A stretch of 64,000 bases of DNA from Porphyrobacter sp. (GTDB lineage: Bacteria > Pseudomonadota > Alphaproteobacteria > Sphingomonadales > Sphingomonadaceae): the NCBI GenBank assembly GCA_031410495.1, contig JANNZG010000010.1, positions 37,854 through 101,853 on the forward strand. Direction: 5' to 3'. This document shows, one piece after another, positions 21,001 through 27,000 of this stretch. How positions within the stretch are numbered: the stretch's first letter is position 1; every line of letters starts with the position of its first letter. Made by a program: the position numbers.

Positions 21001-24000
21001 TCGCACCCGCGAGCTTGGGCTCACCATGGATCCGGGTCGCGATCTGACCCGCGAGCTTGCTGCCTCACTGACCATGAAACGCAGCCGCACTCTCGGCATG
21101 GAAATTTAGGAGAAGGACAATGACGAATACCGAACATGACCCGATCGAAATTGCGGTTGAACCCAAGGCCGCTTCTCAGCCAACGGATGCGGATATTGAT
21201 CCAGCTGCTGCCGCATTCACGCGCCTCGAAGAGGAAATGGCGCTGATGCGACGGGCCGTGCAGCAGCTCGCTGCCGAGCGTGCCGATATCGTTATTCCCG
21301 ATTACGATCCTACACTGAAAGAGATGGCAAAGCAGCTTGGCGCAGTCGGCGGATACCTGAAGGGCATGACAGCGCATCCGGCGATGCAGCTGACCCCCGA
21401 AACCGTCGCCGATCGCATCGCTGTCGCGGCGCAGTCGGCGCGGCGCGCTGATCAGGATCAGATTGTTCAGAGCCGGACCGAATTACAGCATGCGACACGG
21501 GAGCTTCGCGCCATCACGAACAGGGTTCGCACATCCGCCGATCAGCGCGCAATCGTGTTGCGCACGGCAATCGCCAGCGCGCTGACAGCGGTCTTGGTGT
21601 GGTCCTTCCTTCCCGGCGCTGTTGCCCGCGCATTGCCTGATAGCTGGCACTTGCCGGAGCGCATGGCGACGCGGATGTTGGACGCGCCTACCGCGACTGA
21701 GGCAGGAGTGCGGCTGGTCCGGTCGCAAGACCCGGAAGGCTGGAAGGCGATGCAGTTTGTCGCTCAAATTGAGATGCAGAACCGCGAGGCGCTCGCAGCC
21801 TGCAGAGCGAAAGCCGAGAAGGCAGGCGCTCCGGCTCGCTGCACTGTCATGGTCGGCAATTGATCAGACCGACCATGGTAGCCATTAGATCGCAGCGCTG
21901 ATCGAGGGGCAAGTGCCTGAGGTCGTCGGAAATCGCGCAACGGCTACATCACCGGGTGTAACCCCATGGGTTACATTTGTATTGACTTTGCGTGTAACGC
22001 ATGGCATTACACATGCATGGAGATTGGCAGTATCAGGCACAAGGCTCTCCGCAAGTTCGCAGAGTCTGGGAAGCCGAAAGGCCTGATGGAAGCCGACCGT
22101 CTGATGCGGATGCTCGCGTATATCGCTGCGGCTGAAGGCGTAGACGAACTGGCTGTGCCACCGAACTTTGGCTTCCATGCCCTGACCGGAGATCGCGAAG
22201 GGTACTACGCTATGACGGTAACCAAAAACTGGCGGCTGACATTTACATTGATCGACGACACCACGGTCGCCGACCTCGATCTGGAGGACTATCACTGATG
22301 GCCATCACGCTGCATGAGAGCTTTGCGATCCACCCAGGGCCATGGCTGCTTGAGGAGATTGTGAAGCCGTATGGGATGACGGTATCGAGCGCGGCTGAGC
22401 ATCTCAAGGTGACCCGGCCTGCACTAAGCCGCGTGTTGAATGGCCGGGCCGCGCTTACGCCTGGCATGGCGATCCGGTTTGAAAAGGCGTTCGGGATATC
22501 GGCAGCGACCATGCTTCGCATGCAGTCGGCACATGACTTGGCTCAGGCAAAACAGGAAGCCGCGTCAATCAACGTCACGCGGGTTCCAGAGCCTGCGCTC
22601 TAAGCACAGTCAGCTCAGCGAAGAGCCGACCCGGAATGCATCTCACCGCGTTCATTGGATCCCGCCCAAGCGTCTCCAGATGGCGACGCTGAACTTTTCG
22701 GAATGTTCACTTCTTTATCCAACAATGCCAAAAGCATGCTAACTTATTGGCGTTGCTCGGTGTGGCCCGCGATGACGCTACAGGGGAGAGGTGCCAATGA
22801 CCGATACGACGCTGCACAATCCGGATCGCTTCATGGTCGATTTGCGGCAGATACTGTCGCAAGGGAAGAAGCGGATTGGACTGCTTCTGGGTGCAGGCGC
22901 ACCTGTCTCCATTCGCGTCAACGCAGATGGCAAGCTTGATGCGAGCGGCGCGCCGCTGATTCCTGACGTTGCCCGCCTAACCCAGATCGTTGTTGATGAC
23001 TTGGCCGCCGAGGATCGCGAGGTCATTGATAAGCTTCTGCCCGAGCTGGGTGAGAACCCCAACATCGAGACAATTCTGACCCGGGTTAGAAGACTGTCCC
23101 AGGCGATCGGAGGTGCCGAGGTTTACGGACTCAATGGCATCGCGTACGAGGAACTTGCCCAGCGCATTTGCGAGAAGATTGGCGCAATCGTCGCGAGTCC
23201 GCTTCCGGAAGAGCCGAACGCCTTCACAGAATTGGTTTCCTGGATTGGCGGGACCCATCGGGACCATCCCGTGGAGATATTCACCCCGAATTACGATCTT
23301 TTGCTTGAAGAGGCCTTTGAGCGGGCGAGATTGCCTTACTTCGACGGCTTCACCGGCTCTCACAGACCATTTTTCGATCCCACGAGCATCTCAGAAGACT
23401 CGCTCCCAGCTCGGTGGTCGCGAATGTGGAAGATACATGGATCACTGGGCTGGGAGATAAAGCCGGACGCAATTATCAGAACCGGTAGTCGTGAAGCTGC
23501 GCAACTAATCTATCCCGATCATCTGAAGTACGAGCACATAGCAAGGCAACCGTATTCCGCGTTATTCGAGCGGCTAAGAGACTTCTTGACGACGCCCGAC
23601 ACGATTTTGATTTGCTCGGGCTTCTCATTCTTCGATGCGCACATAAGCGCGGTTTTGGACGAAGCGTTGTCTTCAAATACCCACACCGCAGTACTTGCGT
23701 TTCAGTTCAAGCCCCTCGATGAAGAGGAACTTGCGGCAAAATTAGCTCTTCGTCGGCCGAACTTGAGTGTTTATGCGCGCGACGGTGCTGTGATCTTCGG
23801 GGTCAAGGGCAAGTGGAAGCCTGGAGAGCCGCCGACCGAAGAATGGAAAAGCATCCGTCGTACATTTTGGCAATCAGACGCAGGTGGCGAAAGCCAGTTT
23901 GTTCTCGGAGATTTTGTCCGACTTGCACGCTTTTTCGCATTGGCTCAGGCCACGGACATACTTTCCAGATCCGAGGCTCACGAGAAAGAAGACGAAGAGC

Positions 24001-27000
24001 AAGCTGGCGCACAAACGGTTGCGGGTGCCGAAAATGCTTAGTCGCGATCCAACATTTCTTGGAAGCGTCGCATCGGTTTCTGGTTCGGCGGTAAGCGTTC
24101 GTCTCTCTCAATCCGTCGCGTCAGGTCTCTCAATGATCGAGGGGCGGGCCTACCGCATCGGGCAGGTTGGCAGCTTCGTCAGGATTCCGCAGGGATATCA
24201 GGAACTGTACGGAGTCGTTTCTGGTGTGGGCGCCAAGGCCGCGCCCCATTCCGACGTTGCTACGGAAGTCGACACTGGTCGGTGGATGGAAGTTCAGCTC
24301 GTCGGAGAGGCGATAAGCGGGGTCTTCGAGCGAGGCATTAGCCAATATCCCAATGTCGGGGATGGGGTGCACATCACCACCGAGAGCAGCCTCGCCAAAA
24401 TTTACGGCGCAAGCGAGCGGGGCCAGATCACTATTGGCTCCTTGTCCAGCGCCGAGAGCATCCCCGCTAAGTTGGCCTTGAACGAGCTGGTTACTCGTCA
24501 TTCGGCGATCTTGGGCTCAACAGGTTCGGGTAAATCGACAACCATCGCGAGCTTATTGCGCTCAATTTCCAGCTCAGAAGAGGGGGTAGAAGCATACCCA
24601 AGCGCTCGAATTCTGATGCTCGACATACACGGCGAATATTCGGCTGCTCTTTCCGATATAGCCACGGTTTTTTCGGTTGACCCGCAAGCCGGTGAACATG
24701 AATTACTCATGCCCTATTGGGCATTGGATGCATCCGATTTGCTCGACTTTCTCACTGGCGGAGTTGATGGCGCACGCGAAACCGCATTCACTGACAAAAT
24801 TTTCCAGCTCAAGGTAGCTTCGCACGCGGCTCAGAATTTTCCAGGCGTTCAAGAAAGCTCGGTCACAGTCGATACGCCTCTCCCGTTCAGCCTCAAGCAG
24901 CTATGGTATGACCTTATCAATTTCGAGATTGCCACATTCGAGGGGCCAAACCGTGACCAGCCTACGCTGCAAAATCCAGGCGATGCAGACCAGCTTGTCC
25001 CTCCAATTTATAAGCCTCATGCCATGGGAGCCCAAGGCCCGTTCTTGAACCAACAGGCCGTTGGAATCCGAAGGCAGCTCAATCAGCTTCGCTCATTGCT
25101 GCTCGATCGGCGTTACAATTTTCTCCTACATCCGGGCGACTGGGAACCCGAATTGGACGGGACGATCAACAAGGACCTTGATGAACTATTGGCAGGATGG
25201 ATCGGCGGTCCCAAGCCGATCACAATCCTTGATCTTTCGGGCGTTCCAAGTCTCGTTCTTGAAAGGTTGGTGGGCTCAATTCTCAAGGTCGTTTACGAAT
25301 CAATGTTCTGGAGCAGAGAGAAATCAGAAGGTGGGGTTGAGCGCCCGCTTTTAGTCGTGATGGAGGAAGCACATCGATATCTGTCCAGCAGAGCAAATGG
25401 GCTCGCGTCCCAGACTGTCCAAAAGATCGCAAAAGAGGGCAGGAAGTATGGCGTAGGTGCAATGGTTATCAGCCAGCGGCCTTCCGAGGTCGATGAGACG
25501 ATCCTTTCTCAGTGCGGGACCTTCTTCGCTTTGCGTCTATCCAATCCTCAAGATCGGGCAAGGGTTCAGGGTACATTGCCAGATGGACTTGTCAGCCTGC
25601 TTGAGGTTCTACCCGTCCTGAGAACTGGTGAGGCTATTGTCATGGGAGAGGCTGCAAAGCTTCCAATGCGCTGCCGGATCACCCTGCCGCCGGAAGAGCA
25701 TCAACCCAGAAGCAGCGATCCTAAGGTGAGTGAACGGTGGTCGACACCTCGCCGAGAGGAGGGCTACGATCGCGTCGTAGCCTCATGGCGAGCCCAGCGT
25801 CCTCGGGCAGTCATCAATGCCATCGAGATTGAACGACAACCCGTCGATGATGGATCAGAGAGCGATTAGGAGGTATTTATGGAGAGGTACTCTGTCGCGT
25901 CATCAAATATCGCTTCCATTGGTTACGATGCCCCGTCCCAGACACTGGAAGTCGAATTTCTGAGTGGAACGATCTATCAGTACTACGGCGTGCCCGAGAA
26001 TATGTACGAACAGCTCATGCAAGAGTCTTCAAAGGGACGCTTCTTGGATACCTATATCAAGAATGCCTACGGATATTCTCGAGTCGGATAAAAATAATTG
26101 AACTTTCTGAGGGATATATGCGCCTTTCAAAGACGGAATTCATCCACTATTTGAATTGCCCGAAGTCCTTCTGGCTGCTTTTGAAAGCGCCGAATGAGTA
26201 TCCGCACGGAGAATTTTCCGTTTTCCTCCAGAAACTGACGCGCGAGGGCTATGAGGTCGAGCAGTATGTCCGGCAATTTTTCGAGCATGCGCAGGAGCGC
26301 TCCGCCGACTTCCAGCGGGTGTTCGAGACAGAGGACGGCCTCTTTGCCCGTGCAGACGCAATTGAAGCCATAAACGGCGGCACGGTCCTCTACGAGATCA
26401 AATCATCGACGAGTGTAAAGGTCGATGCTGCGCACAATCACCTCAAGGATGCTTGTTTTCAGGTTATCTGCGCCGAGAGAACGGGACAGAAAATTGACGC
26501 CGTTTCCCTTGTGCATCTCAACGGAAATTATGTGCGGGACGGAGAAATCGTTCCCGAAGAGATGCTTGTTTTTGAAGATGTGACTGAACGTGTCCGGGCA
26601 ATCGAGGCTGAGACGAAAGCCGAGATCGGCGAGGCGCTCGCCCTGCTTCGCGAGGTTGAATTGGACCGGTCCGGTTGTTCATGTATCCACAAATCCCGCA
26701 GCAATCATTGCGATGCGTTCGCCCTTTTCAACCCCGCCATTCCCAAGCCCTCAATTTACAGCATTCCGAGGCTCAGCGCGAAGAAGCGGGCGCAGCTGAT
26801 TGCAAGCGGCATTCTTGATCTTCTGGCGATACCTGATGACTACACCCTCTCTGCAAACCAGGCGGGTCTGGTCCAGGCCACGAAGTCGGGTGCGCCAATC
26901 GTCAATCCTGACGGGATCAGGGCATTCCTCGCACAGCTTAGCTTTCCGCTCTATTTCCTCGACTATGAAACCTTCGCGTCCGCCGCGCCAGTCCTTGATC

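Follow-up and report, generated by a model that had tools for sequence, protein, structure and literature searches.

Closest described systems

The closest described relative of the locus analysed here is the SIR2–HerA antiphage system of Paenibacillus sp. 453MF (structures 8W9L, 8WIV, 8WLD and 8WOF), a close homologue with the same gene order. The locus lies in a 64,000-nucleotide (nt) stretch of a Porphyrobacter sp. genome (contig JANNZG010000010.1, hereafter the window), where sir2 and herA are followed by a third gene encoding a small stand-alone KTSC protein. Liao et al. (Nucleic Acids Res 2024; PMC11472057) describe a C-terminal arm domain of the Paenibacillus HerA (PaHerA, residues 576-696) that lies beside the HerA ring and wraps the neighbouring RecA-like domain. 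In two sections of that article and the passages returned by term searches, the domain is not named KTSC, and no test of it was found. Escherichia coli Nezha (8J4U, 8SU9, 8SUB), cluster 1 of Sir2–HerA, shares the general logic of a SIR2 NADase ring combined with a HerA hexamer, causing abortive infection by depletion of nicotinamide adenine dinucleotide (NAD+). Against 8J4U, the window HerA gives E = 4.2e-30 over the C-terminal part only and the window SIR2 gives E = 5.2e-13; identity in the fold alignment is about 20%, so the relationship is not close. The first-pass annotation of the window had called the locus Nezha-like, which holds for the general SIR2–HerA logic but not for its kinship: it is only remotely related to E. 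coli Nezha and closest to Paenibacillus sp. 453MF.

Other HerA systems are instructive for comparison. A 2026 study of E. coli Sir2–HerA types I-III (PMC13434337) screened for adjacent sir2 and herA genes and, in the sections consulted, describes the systems as two-gene. DUF4297-HerA (8ZIQ, 9C1M, 8XAU) and archaeal HerA-NurA have a homologous HerA core (E = 5e-60 to 1e-28) and pair a ring with a nuclease partner, an effector that differs from the SIR2 of the window. Iyer, Burroughs, Anantharaman and Aravind (Viruses 2022; PMC9503650) mention, as unpublished observations, variants composed of HerA, KTSC and an endoDNase, with the nuclease in lieu of the sirtuin, and infer that sirtuin and endoDNase are mutually exclusive. 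The window and 11 related loci differ from those variants in carrying SIR2, HerA, KTSC and a nuclease together. The KTSC fold itself is known from stand-alone proteins of about 70 amino acids (aa), 7X8C from Methanolobus vulcani and 4RGI from Yersinia pestis (YPO2434), which share 44-46% identity with the window protein; no open-access paper on 7X8C was found. The triad of SIR2, HerA and KTSC had not been recognised as a catalogued subtype by the first reading, and this assessment stood: PADLOC has no model recognising KTSC, and full-text literature searches for KTSC together with HerA returned a single side remark, that of PMC9503650.

The KTSC gene encodes the last domain of HerA

The first two genes of the locus carry the hallmarks of the Paenibacillus-453MF type (coordinates of all features are given in Table 1). 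The SIR2 protein is a SIR2_2-family NADase that matches PF13289 (E = 1.6e-16), the PADLOC SIR2 model PDLC04094 (3e-158) and, in a search of solved structures, 8W9L (2.3e-73). Its catalytic residues N165, D167 and H214 are intact and align with N163, D165 and H212 of the Paenibacillus protein. The herA gene follows directly, its ATG overlapping the sir2 stop by 8 nt, and encodes a HerA/FtsK-type ATPase that matches DUF87 (6.4e-35), HerA_C and the PADLOC HerA model PDLC04105 (2.4e-162), with the Walker A (GSTGSGKST) and Walker B (VVMEEAH) motifs both intact. Both proteins score far under the cut-offs of the NCBIfam equivalog models for anti-phage SIR2 and HerA, which derive from other clades.

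The arrangement of the third gene is compact. A Shine-Dalgarno-like run, GGGGAGAGG, stands upstream of sir2, and the sequence TAGGAGGT contains the herA stop codon TAG (25867-25869). The KTSC gene shares the reading frame of herA; its ATG lies 5 nt from the AGGAGG ribosome-binding site and 9 nt from the herA stop. The 9-nt gap, the length of the KTSC protein and the strong AGGAGG over the herA stop, all reported at the outset, were confirmed from the sequence. A fourth gene, encoding a nuclease, follows, and all four genes are co-directional on the forward strand. A scan for promoters and terminators gave counts no better than shuffled controls, and no terminator was found between the four genes.

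The KTSC protein matches PF13619 with E = 1.1e-25 and 89.6 bits against a cut-off of 25, which places it firmly in the family. In the same search of solved structures, the window HerA aligned with residues 10-621 of the 696-aa PaHerA (8WIV_A; E = 3.1e-183), and the KTSC protein aligned with residues 629-696, the last 68 of the same chain (E = 5e-17). When the in-frame TAG was taken as a residue and HerA and KTSC were concatenated into a single 685-aa sequence, positions 5-684 aligned to PaHerA 10-696 in one colinear stretch (E = 2.6e-205). The same KTSC query returned no match to the HerA chain of Nezha or to the chains of DUF4297-HerA and HerA-NurA.

Structural comparison gave the same picture. 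An AlphaFold2 (AF2) model of KTSC built from 48 sequences reached a predicted local distance difference test score (pLDDT) of 95.9 and has the β-sheet and two-helix KTSC fold with its central YxY motif, conserved here as YQYY. In Foldseek it superposed on 7X8C and 4RGI with template modelling (TM) scores of 0.96 and 0.92, and on several HerA chains of 8WLD and 8WOF with TM scores of 0.88-0.89 and root-mean-square deviations (rmsd) of 1.1-1.3 Å over 68 residues, indicating that several HerA subunits in that solved complex contain the domain in ordered form. Matches to 8WIV chains were weaker (TM 0.76-0.86). The KTSC proteins linked to HerA form a clade with conserved motifs of its own: ASSN, YQYY, SKG and YSRVG. 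Residues S8, N10, Y33-Y35, S51-K52-G53 and R68 belong to the conserved surface of the domain.

The window KTSC is thus the terminal HerA domain, produced as a polypeptide of its own: the arm of HerA ends in a KTSC fold as in Paenibacillus, but that fold is supplied in trans by a separate gene, beside a HerA of 611 aa. The domain content of the locus is that of the known, solved system, distributed over three polypeptides instead of two. The first-pass annotation had proposed that KTSC extends the described system as a third component. The translationally coupled third gene is real and conserved, but it is not an extension: because the domain already forms PaHerA residues 629-696, colinear and with the same fold, KTSC is no addition to the described system but a split-off part of HerA. 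What is new is accordingly limited to the split, three-polypeptide architecture, which is uncatalogued in PADLOC and in the papers searched; the domain content is already present in a solved structure.

Fused and split forms of HerA and KTSC

A protein search with the arm and KTSC region retrieved 15 clusters of natural HerA–KTSC fusion proteins of 599-693 aa, for example from Methylorubrum and Cupriavidus. These fusions retain the methionine that starts KTSC in split loci. Related loci were collected by scanning one genome per species, which yielded 61 HerA-related loci; 53 of them, in which HerA is at least 42% identical to that of the window and the sequence continues downstream, were scored. 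Three further loci above this identity level were left unscored (L004 and L052, at a contig edge, and L055, with a truncated HerA). In this species-representative sample, which covers nine or more phyla, only the split architecture was seen in the clade. On the HerA tree the fused forms, the Paenibacillus protein included, are scattered among the split ones, and at least 10 changes of state are needed to explain their distribution.

KTSC is in frame with herA in 30 of the 53 split loci, mostly with the same 9-nt spacer, and out of frame in the other 23; all three stop codons occur at the herA ends. The shared frame, seen in the window as well, would also be expected if the TAG were partly read through, so that both HerA and a HerA–KTSC protein were made and the separate KTSC open reading frame (ORF) were secondary. 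We regard this as very improbable. The 23 loci in which KTSC is out of frame, or overlaps herA by -1, -4 or -8 nt, together with the use of all three stop codons, indicate that the split is real and not a product of read-through. Moreover, KTSC has a start codon of its own at each locus, in most cases together with a Shine-Dalgarno-like site. The excess of in-frame loci is best explained as a trace of single stop-codon mutations that turn one form into the other, an explanation that accounts for it better than read-through and fits the internal methionine kept by the fusions. Fusion and fission probably proceed by mutation of one stop codon, lost or gained within the in-frame 9-nt spacer. Such Rosetta-stone fusion and fission, combined with the solved structure, makes a physical association between KTSC and HerA the natural inference.

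Linkage and conservation of the KTSC gene

In each of the 53 scored loci the gene immediately behind HerA is KTSC. Its ORF, of 69-73 aa, is intact in 51 of them; the other two, L043 and L056, are decayed loci in which KTSC has decayed as well. A count of this linkage had been suggested from the first reading as a check, and the association with this SIR2–HerA clade proved complete. At five distant HerA loci (identity of 35% or less), KTSC was not found. The hosts comprise Alpha- and Gammaproteobacteria (including Rahnella, Pantoea and Citrobacter), Acidobacteriota, Verrucomicrobiota, Spirochaetota, Chloroflexota, Planctomycetota, Bacteroidota and Myxococcota. By comparison, only 12 of 301 genomes sampled from the class of the window, Alphaproteobacteria, contain a KTSC gene. 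Since so rare a gene nevertheless stands behind HerA in every scored locus, the HerA–KTSC linkage is far beyond chance. In most related loci the KTSC start lies -8 to +14 nt from the herA stop, and a purine-rich ribosome-binding site is usually present. KTSC identity correlates with HerA identity (r = 0.88, n = 46), and a nonsynonymous divergence (dN) of about 0.05 against saturated synonymous divergence (dS > 1) indicates strong purifying selection on KTSC.

These data bear on the possibility that KTSC is an unrelated neighbour, such as a passenger of a mobile element, with no functional tie to SIR2–HerA. KTSC is a very large family (28,013 representative clusters) found in many other contexts, and in the class-wide sample eight of the 12 KTSC genes do not adjoin a HerA, the remaining four standing behind one. 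Set against the complete linkage across many phyla, the co-variation of KTSC with HerA, the natural fusions and the presence of the domain in the solved HerA structure, the probability of a chance neighbour is negligible.

Two loci that appeared to depart from the pattern were rejected as exceptions. In L031, an Arenicellales metagenome-assembled genome (MAG), the best KTSC match lies upstream, but a divergent KTSC gene also stands right after HerA. This locus thus carries two KTSC genes (3479-3691 and 7870-8091), the copy nearer to the clade consensus lying about 1 kb upstream of SIR2. L036, from a Dehalococcoidia MAG, was considered as a SIR2-less variant and dismissed: residues 80-611 of herA continue in frame from a large serine recombinase that has Resolvase, Recombinase and Zn-ribbon domains (4426-7599), with no SIR2 upstream and an intact KTSC behind. 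This arrangement looks like an integrating element inserted in a defence gene, or an assembly chimera. In L025, from a Vicinamibacterales MAG, KTSC is followed after 6 nt by a gene (8051-10051) for a 666-aa fusion of an ADP-ribosylglycohydrolase with a 2OG-Fe(II) oxygenase, an ADP-ribose-processing enzyme that could be functionally linked to the SIR2 system.

A near-identity DNA search with a Citrobacter cassette found the trio of SIR2, ATP-binding and KTSC genes in one of 5426 complete E. coli genomes. On plasmid A of E. coli C5 (NZ_CP010123.1, 171133-174429) the cassette consists of exactly these three genes, with no fourth, and is bounded on both sides by remnants of the insertion sequences (IS) IS110, IS3 and ISL3, which makes this natural cassette well suited to tests in E. 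coli. A search of a plasmid collection with the four-gene cassette gave no match.

The functional unit in this widespread clade is three genes, and cloning sir2 and herA alone omits the last HerA domain. The papers searched and PADLOC count two genes; in practice, the three genes should be cloned together. The natural split also offers a clean genetic handle on KTSC, a domain visible in the solved structure: it can be removed, provided in trans or fused again without engineering of HerA.

Proposed mechanism and the role of KTSC

The locus is very probably a Paenibacillus-453MF-type SIR2–HerA abortive-infection system on a mobile defence island, in which the KTSC gene is the split-off C-terminal globular domain of the HerA arm. 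KTSC would then be an integral, stoichiometric HerA subunit, and the locus a gene-fission form of the known system. Translational coupling would yield about one KTSC per HerA, and the protein would dock non-covalently outside the HerA hexamer, at the place that the fused domain occupies. In that position it may help to hold the arrangement of arm and neighbouring subunit required for the HerA ring to engage the SIR2 ring and switch it on, acting as a structural brace. As published for Paenibacillus, an auto-inhibited SIR2 oligomer and the HerA hexamer would assemble into an active NADase, nuclease, ATPase and helicase, so that the infected cell is depleted of NAD+ and stops growing.

Several observations weigh against this interpretation. 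The sections consulted of PMC11472057 attribute the trans contacts mainly to helices α19-20, given in the text without residue numbers, and do not tell whether these lie in KTSC or in the retained arm. KTSC is absent from the model in some HerA chains and states and so may be mobile. Aravind and colleagues term KTSC a nucleic-acid-binding domain (DNA or RNA), which would fit sensing. As a proxy for co-folding, the herA-TAG-KTSC read-through fusion was modelled as an AF2 monomer from a 38-row alignment: the core is confident, but the linker (569-615) has a pLDDT below 50, and KTSC is placed unlike in the cryo-electron microscopy (cryo-EM) chains (rmsd of about 18 Å overall against 3-4 Å for the core). 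No statement on docking in trans is drawn from this model, because a monomer cannot show it.

Some of the same observations invite a different role for KTSC, that of a sensor or gate, which would either bind a nucleic acid or protein as phage cue or clamp the HerA ring in a reversible way, so that its un-docking or re-docking licenses the NADase. The split form would ease such regulation. This proposal is compatible with KTSC being a split HerA domain, and the two can coexist. It would account for the domain being ordered in only a subset of cryo-EM HerA chains and states and for the nucleic-acid binding ascribed to it, and it draws on the linker to KTSC, which is long and variable among HerA–KTSC proteins and modelled with low confidence. 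The split form predominates, with 53 loci in species-representative genomes against 15 fused clusters from the separate protein search, and phage proteins trigger other Sir2–HerA types, according to PMC13434337. We nevertheless consider such a function unlikely. Nothing in the analyses here pointed to a ligand, and the protein is slightly acidic (median net charge -1, isoelectric point 5.2), a weak argument against simple DNA binding. Free diffusion cannot be a requirement for KTSC, given how freely the fused and split states replace one another. In the published Paenibacillus complex, activation comes with SIR2–HerA assembly, and the consulted parts of PMC11472057 assign no role to the domain.

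An inhibitory role, which the first-pass annotation had listed beside sensing and regulation, is improbable as well: the domain is covalently fused to HerA in a system reported to defend, and the fused and split states have changed at least 10 times.

The downstream nuclease gene

The fourth gene, an extra relative to the Paenibacillus system, begins 26 nt after KTSC on the same strand. Its product belongs to the DUF2779 family (PF11074, E = 4.3e-33, residues 279-401) and gives weak matches to Cas4 models (2e-7 to 3e-6) over residues 9-165. A comparable nuclease stands directly downstream on the same strand in 11 of the 50 related loci with enough downstream sequence: eight are DUF2779 proteins and three are PD-(D/E)XK proteins with an RNase_H_2 domain. 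One of these three, from L016, was tested against NCBIfam and is a TM0106/TIGR03491-type nuclease. L001 and L002 retain only a nuclease fragment, and the other loci have unrelated genes downstream of KTSC. Presence of the nuclease requires at least five changes on the HerA tree. The DUF2779 family is rare in the class (13 of 401 genomes), which indicates that its association with SIR2–HerA–KTSC is not random.

Such recurrence raises the question of a four-component system, in which the nuclease would be an accessory effector or DNA-end processor of the SIR2–HerA–KTSC ring, analogous to HerA-NurA. We entertain this option tentatively. The gene is co-directional and closely spaced with no terminator in between, a Cas4-like and RNase H-fold nuclease has repeatedly come to occupy this position, the family is rare in the class, and the HerA, KTSC and endoDNase variants remarked on by Aravind and colleagues (PMC9503650) point the same way. 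An obligate four-gene system is not what was observed, however. About 76% of the loci lack such a nuclease, and L001 and L002 hold a remnant only; the E. coli cassette consists of exactly three genes between IS remnants; and, in the literature, two genes suffice for the fused Paenibacillus system. In addition, a DUF2779 nuclease of another genome, 67% identical to that of the window, is the last gene of a different co-directional, defence-like cluster (L078, G184:C3; 2167-9410), behind DndB-like, ResIII/DEAD helicase, GHKL ATPase and PLD-like genes, and no SIR2, HerA or KTSC was found within about 8 kb upstream and 5 kb downstream of it. This locus suggests that the nuclease gene is portable and closes several defence operons. 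We therefore read the Cas4-like/DUF2779 nuclease as a facultative, portable accessory or a separate defence gene, and not as a core subunit.

A more speculative combination, which we judge quite unlikely, is that KTSC serves the HerA ring as a gate or docking module that can detach, its binding state being what changes on phage infection, and that the adjoining position is an accessory slot which repeatedly recruits Cas4-like and RNase H-fold DNA-end nucleases (DUF2779/TM0106). If this were true, about a quarter of the systems would couple HerA-driven DNA-end processing to NAD+ depletion, and SIR2 would work jointly with a nuclease, in conflict with the proposal that sirtuin and endoDNase exclude each other in HerA–KTSC systems.

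Another recurrent nuclease-like neighbour is a DUF2130 (RmuC-like) protein, encoded after KTSC in L020 (8146-9549) and L053 (8188-8496).

Genomic context

The cassette lies within a low-GC stretch of the window: the guanine-cytosine (GC) fraction is about 0.51-0.65, mostly below 0.62, from position 1 to about 30000, against about 0.67 beyond. This stretch has the features of a mobile element and defence island, and the genes assigned in it are listed in Table 1.

Table 1. Features of the SIR2–HerA–KTSC locus and of the surrounding low-GC stretch (window coordinates)
Feature	Position	Strand	Basis or remark
SIR2-family NADase, 414 aa, Paenibacillus-453MF type	22797-24041	+	ATG start; PF13289, PADLOC, PDB 8W9L
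HerA ATPase/translocase, 611 aa, without the terminal KTSC domain	24034-25869	+	DUF87, HerA_C, PADLOC, 8WIV_A
AGGAGG ribosome-binding site	25868-25873	+	Overlaps herA TAG stop; read from sequence
Stand-alone KTSC protein, 70 aa	25879-26091	+	In frame with herA; PF13619; PaHerA residues 629-696
Cas4-like PD-(D/E)XK and DUF2779 (RNase H-fold) double nuclease, 477 aa	26118-27551	+	PF11074, weak Cas4
Relaxase, DUF3363/MobA-VirD2-like	2278-4518	+	
Gabija-like pair	4708-8939	-	Genes overlap by 4 nt
Gabija-like: UvrD-type helicase, 633 aa	4708-6609	-	
Gabija-like: AAA_15 and OLD-like TOPRIM ATPase, 777 aa	6606-8939	-	
Eco57I-like/N6_Mtase methylase-endonuclease, 1031 aa	9034-12129	-	
SNase-like nuclease, 235 aa	15755-16462		
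Pol-beta/SMODS-like nucleotidyltransferase and HEPN, 370 aa	16504-17616	-	
Relaxase, MobA/MobL and RecD-like helicase, TraA type, 984 aa	18155-21109	+	
DUF6118	21120-21863		After TraA-type relaxase
HigB/HigA	21966-22603		After DUF6118
ORF without family match, 328 aa	27503-28489	-	Converges on DUF2779 gene, 3' overlap of 49 nt
Two ORFs without family match	28655-29257, 29346-29750	-	

Among these neighbours, the Eco57I-like protein looks like a single-chain type IIG restriction-modification enzyme.

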